This document shows, piece after piece, positions 1 to 9,859 of a stretch of DNA of 64,000 bases. A program made the translations under genes and the position numbers. The stretch is taken from contig CAYNZJ010000001.1 of assembly GCA_964401705.1 (NCBI GenBank), positions 3,648 to 67,647 on the forward strand. Direction: 5' to 3'. The DNA is from an uncultured Candidatus Saccharibacteria bacterium. GTDB lineage: Bacteria; Patescibacteriota; Minisyncoccia; Phycocordibacterales; UBA9973. How positions within the stretch are numbered: position 1 is the first letter of the stretch; the number at the start of each line of letters is the position of its first letter. Under the pieces are notes generated by a model. The model had not been told where the DNA came from. It did not search any database and was given only the letters and a program-made list of their open reading frames with translations.

Positions 1-4
1 TTTA

Positions 5-1267
5 ATGTATGTATATTATGATATTGGTGGTAAATATATAGTAGATTCAATGGATATGTTAAATGGTGGTGAATTTTTATATGAAAATATATTTACTGAA
101 CAATGTTATAAATGTAAATATTCGCAAAATTCAATAGAATGTTCAGAATGTAATTTTATATATGATTGTAAAAATTGCATAGAGTGTTTTATGTGTACTG
201 GTTTAAGAAATAAGAGATTTTACTTTAAAAACAAAAAGTATTCAAAAGAAGAGTATTATAAAATACTTGAATCTTATTCTTTAAATACAAGAAATGGTGT
301 TAAAAAAGCTCGTATTGAGTTTGAGGAAATTAAAAAAAAACAAATAAGAAGATGTTTCAATATTATTAATTCATACAATTGTAAAGGAGATTTATTGTTT
401 AATGGTAAAAATTCACAATTTTGTTTTAATGTACAAAGGCCAGAGGATTCTAAATGGATAGAAAATTCTGATACTCCAAAGGATTGTTATGATTTATCCA
501 CGGGCGGGGAATTAAATTTTTGTTATGAAGGAATAACACCAGATCATTCATATAAAAACTTATTTGGAATATTTTCTTGGAAAAACCAAGAAGTTGAATT
601 TGCTCACCATTGCCATTCTTCTAAATATTTATTTGCTTGTGCAGGATTAAGAAATTCTGAATATTCTATTTTTAATAAGAGATATTCTAAAGAAGAATAT
701 TTTGAAATGATAGAAAAAATCAAAAAACATATGGATGATATGCCTTATGTAGACAAAAACGGGATGGTTTATAAATATGGTGAATTTTTACCAGCAGAGC
801 TTTCTTATTTTGGTTATAATGAAACCACCGCTAATCTACATTTTCCTTTAAATAAAAATCAGGCATTGGAGAAAAATTTTTCTTGGTCAGATTTAAATAA
901 AAAAACAGTTGGCCAAGAAACCTTGGAGCAAAAAGACATACCAGATGATATTAATAATGTTGACGAAAAAATTTGTAACGAAATTCTTAAGTGTGTATCT
1001 TGCGATAGAAATTATAAAATAATTTATAATGAATTTGAGTTTTATAAACGCTTGAATATACCAATACCAGAAAAATGTTTTTACTGTAGACAAGAAGACC
1101 GATTTAAATTAAAGAATCCATATATTCTTTGGGGTAGAGAATGTATGTGTAATAAGAGTATTCATGGACACGAAGGTATTTGTACTAATCAATTCGAAAC
1201 TTCATACTCCCCAGATAGACCAGAGATAGTTTACTGCGAAAAGTGTTACCAGCAGGAAATTGTTTAA
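5..1267 (+). CDS. Cys-rich multi-zinc-ribbon repeat protein, paralog A (ORF runs to window edge; 5' end probably outside window)
   Basis: Shares the module C-x-x-C..FxCxGLRNxxYxIFNKxYSKEEY and the C-terminal zinc ribbon ..CxxCDRNYKI..FY..L.IPIP..C..CRQ..RF....PDRPEIVYCEKCYQQEIV with the next two genes. Confidence 0.5.
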   Translation: MYVYYDIGGKYIVDSMDMLNGGEFLYENIFTEQCYKCKYSQNSIECSECNFIYDCKNCIECFMCTGLRNKRFYFKNKKYSKEEYYKILESYSLNTRNGVKKARIEFEEIKKKQIRRCFNIINSYNCKGDLLFNGKNSQFCFNVQRPEDSKWIENSDTPKDCYDLSTGGELNFCYEGITPDHSYKNLFGIFSWKNQEVEFAHHCHSSKYLFACAGLRNSEYSIFNKRYSKEEYFEMIEKIKKHMDDMPYVDKNGMVYKYGEFLPAELSYFGYNETTANLHFPLNKNQALEKNFSWSDLNKKTVGQETLEQKDIPDDINNVDEKICNEILKCVSCDRNYKIIYNEFEFYKRLNIPIPEKCFYCRQEDRFKLKNPYILWGRECMCNKSIHGHEGICTNQFETSYSPDRPEIVYCEKCYQQEIV

Positions 1268-1281
1268 TGGAAAGTATAAAT

Positions 1282-3042
1282 ATGGAAAACCAAATGAAAC
1301 AATGTCAGTCGTGTAAAAATAGCTTTGTAATAGAAAGTGAGGATTTTGATTTTTATGCGAAGATTGCGGTCCCAGCACCGACATTTTGTGTCGATTGTCG
1401 TAGTGTTCAAAGATTTGCAACAAGGAATGTAAAGTCCCTATATCGTCGAGAATGTGATAGTTGCCATAAAGTGGTGATATCTCGATTTTCTATAAATAAC
1501 CCTGCCACTATGTATTGTAAGGACTGCTGGTGGGGAGAATCTTGGGATGGTACTGATTATGGAATGGAATATGATTTTTCAAAGCCATTTTTTGAACAAT
1601 TTTATAAACTTTTAAATAAAGTGCCACACAGTGCAACACTAAATACCAAAATGTTAAATAGTGATTATTGCAATATGGAAAGTGAAGACAAAAATTGTTA
1701 TTTAACTTTTGGTGGTCATTATAATGAAGAATGTTTATATACTGAATATTCTATTCATGGTAAAGAAGTAATGGATGCTTATTGGTCGTTTAATTGTGAA
1801 CAATTATATGAAACTTTAATTACAGAAAAATGTTTTAGGACACTATATTCCGAGCAGTGTTATGATTGTTTAGATACTTATTTTTCGTATGATTGTCATA
1901 ATTGTTCCAATGTTTTTGGTTGTGCAGGACTGCGTAATAAATCATATTGTATTTTTAATAAACAATATTCTCGTGAAGATTATTTACAATTTATCAAAGA
2001 TGCCAATTTAGCTTCATATAGAATGGTTCAAAATTTCTTAAAAAAGACTAAAGAATTTTGGAATACCATTCCACATAAATCTGCCATTATACATCAATCA
2101 AATAATGTAACCGGTAATTATATTGCTAATTCAAATAATTCAAAAAATATTTGGCAGTCAGACGCAGTAGAAAATTTAAAAAATGCATATATTACTGCAT
2201 GGTCTAAAGATTGCCAAGATGAAACATCAGCCGGTGGTAATGAACTTTGTTATATGACTGGCCATGGTGGCGGATTGTATAATTGTGCATTTATAATGTA
2301 TTCATTTAATACAGATATGCAAAGCTCTAAGCATACTCTCAATTCCCAATATGGTTATACTATTTTAAATAGTAGTGATACTTTTGGTTGTGTTAGTTTA
2401 CGAAATAAAAAATATTGTATTTTAAACAAACAATACACCAAAGAACAGTATGACGAATTATTACCTAAAATAAAACAACATATGAATGATATGCCGTATT
2501 TGTCACCAGTAAATGGTTTTGTTTATAAATATGGAGATTTTTTCCCAAATGAGTATAGTTTGTTTTCATACAACGAAAGTGTTGCTCAAAATTTTTACCC
2601 TAAAACAAAAGAAGAAGTAGAGCGTCTTGGCTTTATTTGGCGAGAAGAAATAGAAAATGAGTACAATTTTACTGAATATATAATTCCAGACAATATAAAT
2701 GAAGTAGGGGATGAAATAATAAACCAGGTTTTAAAATGTGAACAAAGTGGTAAAGCTTATAGAATAACAGAGCAAGAATTAGATTTTTATAGAAAAATGA
2801 ATATTCCAATTCCACATATTGCCCCAATGGAAAGGATTAAAAATCGAATCAATAAATTGTTACCATTTAAATTATTTGATAGAACCTGTCAATGTATGGG
2901 TAAAAATGATGGAATTTATAATAATACAGGAACTCATTTTCACGAAGAAAATCCTTGTGGTAAAGTTATCCAAACCCCATATAATCCTGATAGCCCCGAA
3001 TTAATTTATTGTGAAGATTGTTATAAACAAGAAATGATATAA
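1282..3042 (+). CDS. Cys-rich multi-zinc-ribbon repeat protein, paralog B
   Basis: Start MENQMKQCQSCKN is homologous to the MENQTKQCQFCKN start of paralog C. Has N-terminal and C-terminal CxxC...CxxCR zinc-ribbon modules, internal repeats FGCAGLRNKSYCIFNKQYSREDY and FGCVSLRNKKYCILNKQYTKEQY, and ends PDSPELIYCEDCYKQEMI. Confidence 0.55.
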   Translation: MENQMKQCQSCKNSFVIESEDFDFYAKIAVPAPTFCVDCRSVQRFATRNVKSLYRRECDSCHKVVISRFSINNPATMYCKDCWWGESWDGTDYGMEYDFSKPFFEQFYKLLNKVPHSATLNTKMLNSDYCNMESEDKNCYLTFGGHYNEECLYTEYSIHGKEVMDAYWSFNCEQLYETLITEKCFRTLYSEQCYDCLDTYFSYDCHNCSNVFGCAGLRNKSYCIFNKQYSREDYLQFIKDANLASYRMVQNFLKKTKEFWNTIPHKSAIIHQSNNVTGNYIANSNNSKNIWQSDAVENLKNAYITAWSKDCQDETSAGGNELCYMTGHGGGLYNCAFIMYSFNTDMQSSKHTLNSQYGYTILNSSDTFGCVSLRNKKYCILNKQYTKEQYDELLPKIKQHMNDMPYLSPVNGFVYKYGDFFPNEYSLFSYNESVAQNFYPKTKEEVERLGFIWREEIENEYNFTEYIIPDNINEVGDEIINQVLKCEQSGKAYRITEQELDFYRKMNIPIPHIAPMERIKNRINKLLPFKLFDRTCQCMGKNDGIYNNTGTHFHEENPCGKVIQTPYNPDSPELIYCEDCYKQEMI

Positions 3043-3050
3043 TCAAGTAT

Positions 3051-4754
3051 ATGGAAAACCAAACAAAACAATGTCAATTTTGTAAGAATGATTTCGTTAT
3101 TGAAACAGAGGATTTTGCATTTTATGATAGGTTAAATGTCCCAGCACCAACTTGGTGCCCACAGTGTCGTTTTCAAAGAAGACTTAGTTTTTTAAACTGG
3201 CATAGTTTGTATAAAAGAAAGTGTGACAAATGTGATGCATCAATGATATCAGTACATCACGAGGACAAACCCTTCAGAGTATTCTGTAATCCATGTTACT
3301 GGAAAGACGATTGGGATGGTACCGAATATGCTATGGACTATGATCCTAATCGCAATTTCTTTGAACAAATGCTAGAACTTCGAAATAAATCAAATTATAT
3401 GGGGCAAGAAACATTATATTCTACTTTACAAAATACCCCATACGCTAATGCAGCTGCATACCAAAAGGATTGTTTTATGATATTTAATGCCGACTATGGC
3501 GAGCGTTGTGTATATAGTACATCTTATGCAAATTTAACAGAAAGTTTAGACACTTATAGGACAAATAGCAGTGAACTTTGTTTTGAATGTGTTGAAGCTT
3601 ATAAATGTTTTAAATGTATTTATAGTGAAAATATAGAATCATGCTCTAATGTAATGTTTTCAAAAAATTTATCTGGTTGTACTGATTGTTTCGGTTGTAT
3701 TAATTTGCGTAATAAAAATTATTATATTTTTAATCAAGAATATAGTAGGGAAGAATACAAAGAAAAAATAAAAAGTTTTAATTTAGACACACAAGATGGG
3801 GTAATAAATATGCTTGAAAAAGTTAAAAACTTTTATTTAACCCAACCATATCGTGCAACTATTGGTAATAGTATGAATTTAAATACAACAGGGGATATGG
3901 TATATGAATGTAAAAATGTCAAAAATGCTTACCAGGTTAGTAATACTGAAGATTCTAGATATATTCAAATGTTAATAATGGGGCCAACGAAGGATTGTTA
4001 TGACTATACTGTATGGGGTTATGGTGTAGAGAAATTATATGAATGCTTAACAGTAGGTGAAGGAGCATACAATACTCATTTTTCTGCACAATGTTGGCCA
4101 GCTGCGATTGAAAATGAATATTGTATGTACACAATACAATCTAAAAATTGTTTTGGTTGTGTTAATTTAAAAAGAAAACAATATTGTATTTTAAATAAAG
4201 AATACAGTAAAGAAGAATATGAAAAACTTCGTATCCAAATAATTGATGATATAAAAAATAATCCCTACATAGATAAAAATGGCCGAAAATGGAGTTATGG
4301 AGAATTTTTACCAATAGATTTATCATCTTACTCTTATAATGAAACTGTAGCTAATTCTATATTCCCACAAAATAAAGATTCAATAATAAATCAGGGTTAT
4401 TCTTGGTACGAAACAAAAGAAAATAATTATACTACGACTTTAAATAAAAACGATATCCCAAAAACTATTAATGAAACAACTGACGAGATTTTGGTAGAAG
4501 TTATGGAATGCAGTACTTGCCATAGAGCTTATAAAATAAATGAACAAGAATTATATTTATTACATAAACTAGGAATGCCAATACCATATGACTGCTGGAA
4601 ATGTCGACAAAACCGTAGATTTAAAATCATAAATCCACCAAAACTTTACAATAGAAACTGTGCTAAATGTAATAACGAAATCATTACATCTTATGCTCCA
4701 GATAGGCCAGAAATAGTTTATTGTGAAAAGTGCTACCAACAAGAAATAGTTTAG
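3051..4754 (+). CDS. Cys-rich multi-zinc-ribbon repeat protein, paralog C
   Basis: Same architecture as paralogs A and B. Ends PDRPEIVYCEKCYQQEIV, the same tail as paralog A. Confidence 0.55.
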   Translation: MENQTKQCQFCKNDFVIETEDFAFYDRLNVPAPTWCPQCRFQRRLSFLNWHSLYKRKCDKCDASMISVHHEDKPFRVFCNPCYWKDDWDGTEYAMDYDPNRNFFEQMLELRNKSNYMGQETLYSTLQNTPYANAAAYQKDCFMIFNADYGERCVYSTSYANLTESLDTYRTNSSELCFECVEAYKCFKCIYSENIESCSNVMFSKNLSGCTDCFGCINLRNKNYYIFNQEYSREEYKEKIKSFNLDTQDGVINMLEKVKNFYLTQPYRATIGNSMNLNTTGDMVYECKNVKNAYQVSNTEDSRYIQMLIMGPTKDCYDYTVWGYGVEKLYECLTVGEGAYNTHFSAQCWPAAIENEYCMYTIQSKNCFGCVNLKRKQYCILNKEYSKEEYEKLRIQIIDDIKNNPYIDKNGRKWSYGEFLPIDLSSYSYNETVANSIFPQNKDSIINQGYSWYETKENNYTTTLNKNDIPKTINETTDEILVEVMECSTCHRAYKINEQELYLLHKLGMPIPYDCWKCRQNRRFKIINPPKLYNRNCAKCNNEIITSYAPDRPEIVYCEKCYQQEIV

Positions 4755-7319: not shown

Positions 7320-7823
7320 ATGTCTTTAGAATATACTACACCTGTTCCCAACAGGGTATTCGACTTTGACCTTGCAAAACTTAAAGAAGTTGAATTAAAA
7401 GTTCTGATGGTGGTCATTAGAAAAACCCACGGTTGGGTTGAACAAAAAAACCATCGGCAAAGGCGACAAATTCAACGCATTACAATAAATACTTTCGAAC
7501 TACTAACTGGAAGTTCAAGAAGAAGTATTTCAGGGGCTATTCAATCTCTGATTCAAAAAGAGCTTATCGTGGTCTATGACTATAACGGTAAGGTCTTGAA
7601 AGAAGCGGATGACCGAAAAGGAAAATACCATTTGTATTTTAAACCCAATATTCCACCTGTGGAAAACCACATACCTAGGCAAAATTTGCTCTTACCCTAC
7701 GAAAAATTCTCTCAGCAACCAAAGCAAAATTTGCTCAATACTATTAAAGAAAATATGGCAAAGAAAAATGAAAATATAAATTCATATCATATTAGCCACC
7801 ACATTAAAAATTACAGCCTATGA
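7320..7823 (+). CDS. RepA-like replication initiator / phage replisome organizer N-terminal wHTH domain protein
   Basis: ELKVLMVVIRKTHGW...LTGSSRRSISGAIQSLIQKELI matches the Rep initiator wHTH pattern (vLlyilrktyGw...ltGlsrrtv..al..L...glI). Confidence 0.55.
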   Translation: MSLEYTTPVPNRVFDFDLAKLKEVELKVLMVVIRKTHGWVEQKNHRQRRQIQRITINTFELLTGSSRRSISGAIQSLIQKELIVVYDYNGKVLKEADDRKGKYHLYFKPNIPPVENHIPRQNLLLPYEKFSQQPKQNLLNTIKENMAKKNENINSYHISHHIKNYSL

Positions 7824-8019
7824 CCCAAGACAACCCATTTGGAAATGAACACCGTAAAAATGTAATCGAAAAATTAATGAATGATGGATTAGTTAAGCGA
7901 ATCACAATCATAGAAGGGAACTATCCATCCCAAAAACAACAGCGAGATTTTTTAGACCGAATAATGGATTGGCTCAAAGGAAAGCGAAAGCATTACTAAC
8001 CCATAATCTCACATAAACA

Positions 8020-8367
8020 ATGTCTACAAAACAAAAACAATCCAATAAACCAATAAGTAACTGGCTACTCACTGAAAATGGAGTATACCTACTTATTGGC
8101 GATGGATACCGAATAACTTACAACCCTTCAACCTTATATACCTTCAACCTTAAAAAAGCTAAAGACCCACTCTTTCAATTTGAAGAGGATGAAGAAACAG
8201 AAGAAACTGCACTTTACATCAACGATACAGATTCATATCTAATCTTGGATGGAGACTTTCGAGCAGTATATGATGAATGTCAAAGTGTTGAAGAGTGCTT
8301 AGCTGTCTTCCGAAAATATGCTCCTTGGTACCGTTCAAAGTTCTGCTCCGGTCCAGATTCCATCTGA
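8020..8367 (+). CDS. hypothetical protein (possible antitoxin partner of downstream toxin)
   Basis: Sits directly upstream of the PemK-like gene with a 25-nt gap. No recognisable motif. Confidence 0.25.
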   Translation: MSTKQKQSNKPISNWLLTENGVYLLIGDGYRITYNPSTLYTFNLKKAKDPLFQFEEDEETEETALYINDTDSYLILDGDFRAVYDECQSVEECLAVFRKYAPWYRSKFCSGPDSI

Positions 8368-8391
8368 TTATAAGTATGTTAAAATAGAACT

Positions 8392-8781
8392 ATGTATTCA
8401 AAAGACTATGAGAAATGGAACATTTTAAAACAAAACCTTAATGCTATAAAAGGTCAAACCCTTCGTGTAAAAGAAGGGGAGATTTGGTGGTGTGCTATCG
8501 GCGTAAACATAGGAAATGAAATTGATGGTAAAAATGAGTTATACGAAAGGCCGGTAATTGTAATTAAAAAATTCCCTAATAACAGTTTTTTGGTAGTACC
8601 CCTTTCTAAAACAGAACGCGAACATCAATTTGCTATTCCTTTCGCCATCCAATCAAATCTATCTAAAGCTATAATCTCCCAAGTTAGAGTTGTAAGTCCA
8701 AAACGATTGATACGTCGGATGCACAAACTTTCTTCCAAGAAACTACTGGCAATCACCAATCACTTAAAGCGCATGATATAA
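8392..8781 (+). CDS. PemK/MazF-family toxin-like protein
   Basis: GEIWWCAIGVNIGNEIDGKNELYERPVIVI...VVPLSK resembles the MazF/PemK fold signature (G.i..v.f....G.E..k.RPavVl...). Confidence 0.45.
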   Translation: MYSKDYEKWNILKQNLNAIKGQTLRVKEGEIWWCAIGVNIGNEIDGKNELYERPVIVIKKFPNNSFLVVPLSKTEREHQFAIPFAIQSNLSKAIISQVRVVSPKRLIRRMHKLSSKKLLAITNHLKRMI

Positions 8782-8971
8782 AAAATCGGCTCCCCACAAT
8801 GTGAGGAGCCTCGGGGGCCTGACGGCCACTGGTAAACATAGTATACACCCTTTCAATGAAATTGAAAAGTGGTACTGTGGAAATCTCAACAAACACTAGC
8901 TAACTCTAAACTGGCTGTAAGCCGAAGAATCTGCTATTCATAAAATTTCAAACAACTTAATATTTTAAAAA

Positions 8972-9859
8972 ATGGAAACAAATTCAAAAACAAAAATCGA
9001 CATCTACGAAATGGTAACAGATCGTATTATTCAAAAACTCGAAGAGGGAATTATCCCTTGGCAACAACCCTGGACAGAAGCAGGCCTTCCTAAGAATTTA
9101 ATAACTCAGAAAGCCTACACCGGAATTAATGTCCTTCTCCTTGCATCTATGGGATTTGCTCGTAACTACTTTCTAACCTTCAAACAAATCCAAGAATTAG
9201 GAGGTTCTGTAAACAAAGGCGAAAAATCCATCCCAGTTATTTTTTGGAAGTGGTCTGAAAAAGAGGATCCGCAAACCAAAGAACTAAAAAAAGTCTCAAT
9301 GATACGGTACTATACTGTATTCAATGTAGACCAATGCACCGGAATACCCGAAGACAAGATACCTAAAGTTGTAAATAACAACTGTGAGATTGAGATGGGA
9401 GAGCTTGAAGCTATTATTGAAGAAATGCCAAACAAGCCACTAGTTCGCCATCTTTCATCTCAGGCCTATTATCACCCCAAGGAAGACTATATCAGTATGC
9501 CAATGATGAATGTTTTCAAAGATGCTGAAAGCTATTGGGGAACTCTATTCCATGAACTGATTCACTCTACCGGTCACCAAAGCAGACTTAACCGTAAAGA
9601 AATTGTTGAATGGACTAACTTTGGTTCTGAATCTTACTCCCAAGAAGAACTAGTTGCAGAAATCGGTGCTTGTTATCTTAAATCCCATTGTGGTATTGAT
9701 ACCAAACACTTTGAAAACAATGTTGCCTATATCCAAAACTGGCTCACTAAACTAAAGAATGACAAGCGGTTTATAATCTTCGCCAGTGCTAAAGCACAAA
9801 GGGCGGTGGATTATATATTACAGAAGGTACCTGTTGAAAAAGAGACAGTAGAATTTTAG
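8972..9859 (+). CDS. ardC: ArdC-like antirestriction protein (N-terminal ssDNA-binding DUF1738 + zincin-like metalloprotease)
   Basis: VTDRIIQKLEEGIIPWQQPW...YTGINVLLL...FLTFKQIQELGG, plus an HExxH motif (LFHELIHSTGH). Confidence 0.75.
   Translation: METNSKTKIDIYEMVTDRIIQKLEEGIIPWQQPWTEAGLPKNLITQKAYTGINVLLLASMGFARNYFLTFKQIQELGGSVNKGEKSIPVIFWKWSEKEDPQTKELKKVSMIRYYTVFNVDQCTGIPEDKIPKVVNNNCEIEMGELEAIIEEMPNKPLVRHLSSQAYYHPKEDYISMPMMNVFKDAESYWGTLFHELIHSTGHQSRLNRKEIVEWTNFGSESYSQEELVAEIGACYLKSHCGIDTKHFENNVAYIQNWLTKLKNDKRFIIFASAKAQRAVDYILQKVPVEKETVEF

Follow-up and report, generated by a model that had tools for sequence, protein, structure and literature searches.

What do the cysteine-rich proteins do that are encoded, one after another, at the beginning of a 64,000-nucleotide stretch of DNA from an uncultured Candidatus Saccharibacteria bacterium (assembly GCA_964401705.1, contig CAYNZJ010000001.1, forward-strand positions 3,648 to 67,647; the whole stretch is called the window below)? 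The first-pass annotation, made from the sequence of the window alone, described here a tandem array of three large multi-zinc-ribbon repeat proteins that it could not assign to a family. We have compared these proteins, which we call F, with sequence and structure databases and with the corresponding loci of other genomes. They represent a real, very large, undescribed and uncurated family found mainly in Patescibacteria, and each of them is predicted to be a duplicated beta-solenoid rod carrying two treble-clef zinc fingers at either end, the two pairs being homologous. As to their function, we tentatively favour cytoplasmic, non-enzymatic scaffolds or adaptors that would work with orphan ATPases resembling type IV coupling proteins (T4CPs) in Paceibacteria-type genomes.

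According to the listing of open reading frames (ORFs), positions 2-4754 of the window are filled by three ORFs of F paralogs:

2 to 1267, plus strand: paralog F2, clipped by the window edge; C-terminal 421 codons of a 574-aa protein; family hidden Markov model (HMM) score 445 bits
1282 to 3042, plus strand: paralog F3; 586 aa, 30 Cys, 7 CxxC motifs
3051 to 4754, plus strand: paralog F4, the last gene of the array; 567 aa, 34 Cys; family HMM score 934 bits

The three consecutive same-strand genes and the 8-nt spacer between the last two (3043-3050) are thus as first described. The same is true of the 567-aa length and of the clipped first ORF, which runs open into the edge of the window (positions 2-4 read TTA, not a stop), but the second protein has 586 and not 587 residues. 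Of the two starts listed for it, 1243 and 1282, the correct one is the ATG at 1282 (MENQMKQCQ..., like homologues), in agreement with the gene call at 5307-7067 of L001, a contig of assembly GCA_013558375.1. Since only 3 of 6,763 overlapping bases differ between L001 and the window (99.96% identical), L001 could be used to extend the locus, and it reveals an array of four rather than three paralogs. The gene order on L001 is a MurG fragment, a 490-aa ATPase, F1 (570 aa), F2 (full length 574 aa, L001 3568-5292), F3 and F4. The ATPase gene is TrwB/VirD4-like and lies beyond the window edge (L001 312-1784), 28 nt upstream of F1. The successive gaps from the ATPase through F1, F2 and F3 to F4, all on the same strand, are 28, 42, 14 and 8 nt, and because of this short spacing the five genes are compatible with one transcription unit. 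The window contains the 3′ three-quarters of this tightly spaced, one-strand five-gene cluster. On the 3′ side of F4, genes for an NTP-transferase, a NUDIX protein and ribosomal protein L27 follow on the opposite strand, the last of them 1.3 kb downstream of the array. A scan of the array for promoters and terminators found promoter-like sites at the frequency expected from shuffled sequence in this AT-rich DNA (GC content of the window ~30%). This GC content and the origin of the homologues point to a Paceibacteria-type Patescibacterium. Between F1 and F2, directly 3′ of the F1 stop codon, is a perfect palindrome with a 10-bp stem, ACTTGGAAGT CGG ACTTCCAAGT (L001 3525-3547), which might serve the array as an internal attenuator or as a site of RNA processing.

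The F paralogs are pairwise 34-40% identical (BLAST E 5e-79 to 3e-132); F2 and F4, for instance, share 39% identity over 418 aa (E 6e-85) and F3 and F4 share 38% (E 3e-132). Each contains 30-36 Cys (5.1-6.3% of residues, vs 0.80% for the remaining long ORFs of the window), and the four complete paralogs F1-F4 have 7-13 CxxC motifs per protein. The dozens of Cys reported earlier are therefore present, but their nearly complete pairing as CxxC was overstated, and metal sites are suggested by the four terminal sets alone. Transmembrane (TM) or signal-like hydrophobic segments are absent from 226 of 227 family members, in accordance with the lack of a signal peptide noted at first, and for this reason the F proteins are probably cytoplasmic. 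The median pI of the family is 6.2, with only the C-terminal module mildly basic (+4). Given such unremarkable domain charges, a DNA mimic or a strongly basic DNA binder was rejected.

A word-indexed search returned 4,537 homologues. The best 120 of these are all ~565 aa long, 48-76% identical and from metagenome-assembled genomes (MAGs) of Patescibacteria, and they carry no label, the label 'hypothetical protein' or that of a generic CxxC-x17-CxxC domain. In an exhaustive profile search, 5,141 clusters at 50% identity matched with E <=1e-3 and 2,071 with E <=1e-30, nearly all of 550-600 aa; members are named 'Zinc-binding domain-containing protein' or 'Uncharacterized' in UniRef. At least 591 stretches of species-representative genomes encode relatives. 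Taxonomic breadth was read from the names of the best-scoring matches, and the informative names among the matches listed include Nomura-, Staskawicz-, Jorgensen-, Giovannoni- and Sungii-bacteria as well as Paceibacteria. A second clade comprises Gracilibacteria, Peregrinibacteria and contigs of 52-56% GC whose gene content is unlike what is seen in the candidate phyla radiation (CPR), and one of its members is labelled Bdellovibrionales. In the Gracilibacteria/Peregrinibacteria-type clade, TrmB-family helix-turn-helix regulators are encoded divergently beside F genes (L087 1601-2353 and 6637-7416; L089 3340-4077 and 5159-5887). Thousands of homologues conserve the same columns, which rules out low complexity or another artefact as the source of the repeats, a doubt that the first-pass annotation had itself raised. 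A phage or mobile-element origin was rejected as well, given one partial match in 2.9 million viral contigs. A literature search brought up no account of the family, and a term search within the Méheust 2019 article about protein families of CPR found none either. Considering that Patescibacteria account for a large share of bacterial diversity and that a good part of their small genomes lacks annotation, this family, with its thousands of clusters, strictly kept length of ~570 aa and long-kept paralogs, is among their most conspicuous unknowns.

The inability to place the family also persisted in curated resources: no family scored above threshold when the paralogs were scanned against Pfam, NCBIfam, PADLOC, PHROGs and PDB sequences. 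In PADLOC, F1, F3 and F4 lacked any match at E up to 0.1, and the neighbouring ATPase matched only generic HerA/mad8 ATPase models. The F3 solenoid weakly matches phrog_15341, a family of unknown function (E 3e-5). The closest domain matches concern the terminal fingers and remain below the curated cut-offs of 27 bits for PF23477 (zf_Tbcl_2), 24 bits for PF13451 (zf_Tbcl) and 36 bits for TIGR04272: PF23477 scores 18.4 bits in F3 and 20.2 bits in F4, TIGR04272 scores 16.8 and 16 bits in the same two proteins, and PF13451 scores 15.4 bits over residues 8-44 of F3. A minority of family members have precomputed PF23477 or PF13451 matches, and because some orthologues carry the former, the terminal finger of F is a diverged relative of the PF23477/TIGR04272 domain.

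A structure model of F4, the most conserved orthologue type, was calculated with AlphaFold2 (AF2) from a 53-sequence alignment and reached a predicted local distance difference test score (pLDDT) of 84.9 and a predicted template modelling score of 0.85. The following parts of F4 are predicted:

3051 to 3320, plus strand: N-terminal double treble-clef zinc module, residues 1-90, from AF2 geometry and sub-threshold PF13451 matches
3432 to 3758, plus strand: beta-solenoid half A and cap, residues 128-236, ending in CFGCINLRNKNYYIFNQEYSREEY
3843 to 4220, plus strand: beta-solenoid half B and cap, residues 265-390, with CFGCVNLKRKQYCILNKEYSKEEY at the end; duplicated copy of half A within the protein
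4221 to 4490, plus strand: acidic middle domain, residues 391-480, with the motif PY.D..G..W.YGEFLP..LS.F.YNET.A
4491 to 4754, plus strand: C-terminal double treble-clef zinc module, residues 481-567, and stop codon; homologous to the N-terminal module

In all four terminal sites of the model, two short strands enclose the first CxxC as a knuckle and a helix begins at the second. This is treble-clef geometry; the first-pass annotation had proposed to look for zinc-ribbon geometry in an AlphaFold model. The repetition of the N-terminal module at the C-terminus was also confirmed (BLAST E 5e-10 and 3e-11), as was that of the internal element FGC.xLRNKxYCIFNKxYSKEEY (residues ~213-236 and ~367-390 of the 567-aa F4). 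The description as zinc ribbons, however, holds for the terminal modules only, and the central repeats are modelled as a duplicated beta-solenoid instead of further ribbons. Half A is composed of 12-residue pseudo-repeats with a Cys/Tyr ladder. Short strands run through residues ~128-230 at pLDDT >90 and ~265-380 at pLDDT 54-69, each run finishing in a conserved cap and a helix, and BLAST aligns F2 half B with F3 half A (E 3e-11). In F3, site 3 is degenerate, with CEQSGK in place of the first CxxC and HIAPMER in place of the second, and the last finger holds a long insert.

Conservation per column was computed over 334 diverse members of the family, with the following result for the Cys positions of F4:

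Site 1, C8/C11...C36/C39 (CxxC-x24-CxxC): Cys 96-99% conserved
Site 2, C58/C61...C79/C82 (CxxC-x17-CxxC): Cys 55-79% conserved
Site 3, C487/C490...C515/C518: Cys 83-99% conserved
Site 4, C537/C540...C558/C561 (CxxC-x17-CxxC), with the tail PDRPEIVYCEKCYQQEIV: Cys 97-99% conserved
Solenoid positions: Cys 22-94%, otherwise I/L/A/S/T

Site 2 has been lost in ~45% of the family. The solenoid Cys positions recur with periods of 3 and 12 residues, and they were ruled out as Fe-S or additional Zn ligands, being only partly Cys and otherwise exchanged for aliphatic or small residues. This free replacement identifies them as part of a core ladder and leaves at most four metal sites; accordingly, at most four structural Zn per protein are predicted. 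Small residues, often Cys, form a ladder that packs the solenoid core together with aromatics. In agreement with the absence of radical SAM and ferredoxin signatures noted before, CxxxCxxC and CxxCxxCxxxC(P) gave no Pfam or NCBIfam match in the window paralogs; the sole CxxCxxC run (C210/213/216) lies in the solenoid core, where adjacent ladder positions are I/L/A/S/T in many members. Outside the zinc sites, N228 and N382 are 100% invariant, and D86, D98, Q106, E151, D167, D318 and N430 are invariant acidic or polar residues as well; E500 and R519 are two more invariant polar residues of the protein.

Both folds have known relatives. The F fingers share with CxxC-x17-CxxC treble-clef domains (PF23477, PF13451 and TIGR04272) the exact x17 spacing in sites 2 and 4 and the consensus ...P..RP.(I/V)YC..C; across the family, 72 of 193 members show this spacing within their last 60 aa and the remainder have inserts. 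Such a domain in small proteins of M. mazei has been found experimentally to bind zinc (PMC12704099). The window proteins differ from these domains in scoring below the cut-offs, and the domain would cover ~35 of ~570 residues of F, whereas typical members are free-standing proteins of 36-86 aa from archaea and CPR; a search with the finger alone returned such stand-alone proteins, with no informative domain partners. LIM modules also consist of two consecutive treble-clef-like fingers. The last F finger aligns to the second LIM finger of CRP1, although not significantly (E 0.016), and PDB sequence searches, run with a single protein and with a profile of the C-terminus, brought up nothing beyond insignificant LIM/CRP matches. 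In contrast to LIM, where 2 residues separate the fingers, those of F are ~18 residues and a helix apart and use Cys as the only ligand. The solenoid resembles curli CsgA, the beta-helical antifreeze proteins of Tenebrio, spruce budworm and ryegrass, and bactofilins in its stacked short strands, 12-residue pseudo-repeats and internal ladder of small and aromatic residues. Bactofilins are, like the F proteins, cytoplasmic and encoded as tandem paralogs, whereas curli and antifreeze proteins are secreted. The F solenoid differs from these beta-solenoids in that it would be duplicated, have a helical hairpin breaking it up and carry zinc-finger modules as caps. In the Pfam scan at E up to 1, F proteins have no match to bactofilin (PF04519), pentapeptide-repeat (PF00805) or hexapeptide-repeat (PF00132) families.

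To analyze how the copies arose and what surrounds them, we used a sample of 82 fetched loci and the window (83 sequences with 226 family genes). Arrays recur in related genomes, along with the well-conserved site 4: two or more family copies are present in 54 of the 83 sequences. The longest same-strand runs contain nine copies in 17-21 kb (L021, L049 and L065), five copies lie within 17.7 kb on a second-clade contig of 1.39 Mb, and MAG JBGSSJ01 has 10 copies over three contigs (L006, L031 and L048), which would be roughly 2% of a genome assumed to be ~1 Mb. Each of F1-F4 has an orthologue elsewhere at 48-59% identity, compared with 37-40% to its own neighbours, which agrees with the earlier suggestion of an old duplication whose copies have been kept. 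More generally, 97% of 155 array members are nearer to a gene in another locus (median best identity 59%, vs 43% within the locus). On this basis, the paralogs diverged before their carrier species and have been kept separately, each under purifying selection. Old duplications of this kind favour non-redundant roles and disfavour an expansion in the manner of an arms race.

Clustering of neighbour genes across the fetched loci identified a strongly recurrent partner, a TrwB/VirD4/TraD-like, DUF87-type ATPase. In 78 arrays having both flanks, such an ATPase was found within three genes in 36 (46%), and among multi-copy arrays in 21 of 36 (58%). These ATPases match TrwB_AAD_bind, T4SS-DNA_transf and TraG-D_C above the Pfam thresholds and occur in two forms, a short one of ~490 aa and a long one of ~700 aa, both of which lack TM segments. 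Typical gene orders are 'DnaK, long ATPase, F...F, short ATPase, DnaJ' and 'short ATPase, (CutA), (cytidylyltransferase-like), F...F', and in several genomes the arrays with two ATPases sit between dnaK and dnaJ. Further VirD4/TrwB-like ATPases flank arrays at L071 2854-4986 and L031 15734-18334. The pair of ATPase and F is embedded in at least four outer contexts (MurG, DnaK, an Nramp-like gene and a membrane partner, c10), which suggests that the two genes travel together. In its C-terminal extension, the long ATPase contains a PF23477 finger above threshold (49-54 bits); the CxxC-x17-CxxC motif is present in 17 of 18 long ATPases, 1 of 28 short ones and 2 of 943 other ORFs of the same loci. 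Between the ATPase and the first F gene, a CutA1 divalent-ion-tolerance gene is present in 11 loci and a small cytidylyltransferase-like gene in 6 loci (clusters c3 and c18; for example, L021 2610-2924 and L025 5858-6280).

T4CPs recruit substrates that have no signal peptide, and the F proteins resemble such clients in lacking one. The F loci differ from T4CP systems in several respects: they contain no VirB4, channel or relaxase genes, the linked ATPases have no TM segment, and F resembles no known substrate or adaptor of type IV secretion systems (T4SSs). In some loci, a separate membrane protein adjoins the ATPase. This protein, c10 (L044 807-2156 and homologues), has 449 aa, an N-terminal TM segment and no Pfam match; it matches the N-terminal part of PHROG 5156 and the ATPase matches the C-terminal part, so that the two may together form a split membrane-anchored coupling protein. 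Orphan VirD4-like T4CPs have been reported to be abundant and unexplained in CPR, with 5,713 in 2,918 genomes and only 148 near virB4 (bioRxiv 10.1101/2025.01.22.634366).

We therefore lean, with some reserve, towards the view that F proteins are cytoplasmic scaffolds or adaptors without enzymatic activity which work with orphan T4CP-like ATPases in Paceibacteria-type genomes. They would be rigid modules for binding or scaffolding that attach through their terminal fingers to a protein or nucleic-acid partner, and different paralogs would serve as non-redundant subunits or adaptors of one apparatus. This apparatus would be built around the array-flanking orphan ATPases of the FtsK/HerA superfamily with the same CxxC-x17-CxxC finger, which might take F proteins as clients, to be assembled or translocated, or employ them as adaptors to the polymer being moved. 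It is further possible, though speculative, that finger-capped solenoids and finger-bearing VirD4-like ATPases constitute an unrecognised apparatus specific to Patescibacteria, either a hetero-oligomeric rod or filament assembled or threaded by the ATPase, or a set of adaptors loading DNA or protein onto it. Either variant, if true, would explain T4CP homologues without a T4SS channel in thousands of CPR genomes. The family joins two known folds in a new combination and is tied, by position and a shared domain, to orphan VirD4-like ATPases.

Several points weigh against a scaffold or adaptor of the ATPases. The link between the two rests on gene adjacency and a shared finger domain, and that finger is a small, widespread and autonomous domain whose ATPase copy aligns only weakly to the terminal finger of F (E 0.008). 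The loci were picked for containing F, so that the fraction of 46% is meaningful only as a fraction of arrays, and even this value is inflated by the shared ancestry of synteny within one class; the association is best regarded as suggestive. Approximately half of the arrays have no ATPase nearby, including loci in which F lies between RluA and L19 and those of the Gracilibacteria/Peregrinibacteria type. In another clade, GNAT fusions indicate a different partner. Finally, the invariant D86, D98, Q106, E151, D167, D318, E500 and R519 could form an active or ligand site.

The alternative that survives best, although we regard it as unlikely, is that F proteins are RNA- or ribosome-associated housekeeping factors, whose fingers would bind rRNA, tRNA or ribosomal proteins, whose paralogs would differ in target and which would have recruited GNAT in some lineages. 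The single-copy and best-conserved orthologues are found in the order RuvX-PilM-...-RluA-F-L19 (rluA/rplS) in ~10 loci, and L27 is encoded close to the array in the window. Fusions of an N-terminal GNAT acetyltransferase to F recur in approximately nine clusters, and there is one fusion of an inositol-monophosphatase (IMPase)-family protein to F (fusion coordinates: L084 8001-10196, L088 8001-10190 and L086 3687-6185; contigs of 50-55% GC and non-CPR-like gene content); in these GNAT and IMPase fusions, the first zinc site is without its cysteines. On a contig of 52% GC, the start of a GNAT::F gene overlaps the stop of der (engA), after iscS-mnmA-miaB-like-rnc on the same strand, and in L089 F adjoins genes for a RimI-like GNAT, PNPase and S15. 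A neighbouring 182-aa protein (L020 5213-5761) combines a canonical CxxC-x17-CxxC finger with an RGG-rich N-terminus and a Lys-rich tail, a composition typical of nucleic-acid binders that hints at the role of the canonical finger. However, translation genes are a large share of reduced genomes, which makes adjacency to them weak evidence, and L27, NUDIX and PNPase/S15 are encoded on the opposite strand. Moreover, the proteins are near-neutral, nine or more paralogs per genome would be unusual for a ribosome biogenesis factor, and Pfam and NCBIfam scans detected no RNA-binding domain.

It is improbable that the F proteins are instead exported clients, that is, effectors or surface/adhesin-like beta-helix proteins which the adjacent T4CP-like ATPase would deliver without a signal peptide for episymbiotic interaction with a host. 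The substrate preference of T4CPs, the linkage of the arrays to such ATPases, their position between dnaK and dnaJ in several genomes, and the multigene tandem arrays that host-interaction genes commonly form would all fit this idea. However, orthologues are 50-60% identical across deep divergences and fixed in length, which indicates purifying and not diversifying selection, and four predicted structural zinc fingers are a usual feature of cytoplasmic proteins and sit badly with transport in unfolded form. In addition, the ATPases themselves have no TM segment, and most T4CP homologues of CPR are not encoded beside a VirB4 channel (bioRxiv 10.1101/2025.01.22.634366).

An enzyme with an unrecognised active site on the solenoid or the middle domain, for example, a transferase like the left-handed beta-helix acyltransferases, appears highly doubtful. 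Invariant acidic and polar residues do exist outside the zinc sites (D86, D98, Q106, E151, D167, N228, D318, N382 and N430), and GNAT and IMPase-family enzymes are fused or adjacent to F. Nevertheless, the positions of conserved residues trace the ladder of 12 residues and the cap with its duplicate, as expected of structural positions, and there is no conserved His or Cys-His pattern typical of acyltransferases or gamma-carbonic anhydrase. A Foldseek search against PDB yielded weak matches to the left-handed beta-helices of GlmU, LpxD and gamma-carbonic anhydrase, which are insignificant (best E 7.6e-3, probability <=0.38, TM-score <=0.11), and assignments as an enzyme, a hexapeptide-repeat transferase or a gamma-carbonic anhydrase were therefore dropped; no hexapeptide-repeat or other enzyme family of Pfam matched even at E 1. 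That F proteins are metal or redox buffers, serving as a bulk Cys-rich store of Zn or other metals or as an oxidant sink in organisms with few antioxidant systems, is scarcely credible despite a Cys content of 5-6%, the CutA1 genes in 11 loci and the high copy number, because the architecture is large and precisely conserved, including many invariant residues other than Cys, aliphatic residues freely take the place of the solenoid Cys, and the long individual conservation of paralogs would be needless for a bulk buffer.

Further along the window, just downstream of rpmA and the NUDIX gene, a gene cluster at 7320-9859 resembles the remnant of a mobile element:

7320 to 7823: weak phage RepO-like protein
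8392 to 8781: PemK/MazF-type toxin
8972 to 9859: ArdC-like anti-restriction protein with ArdcN and zincin domains

The GC content is 0.34-0.37 over 6-12 kb of the window, compared with 0.28-0.30 over 1-6 kb.

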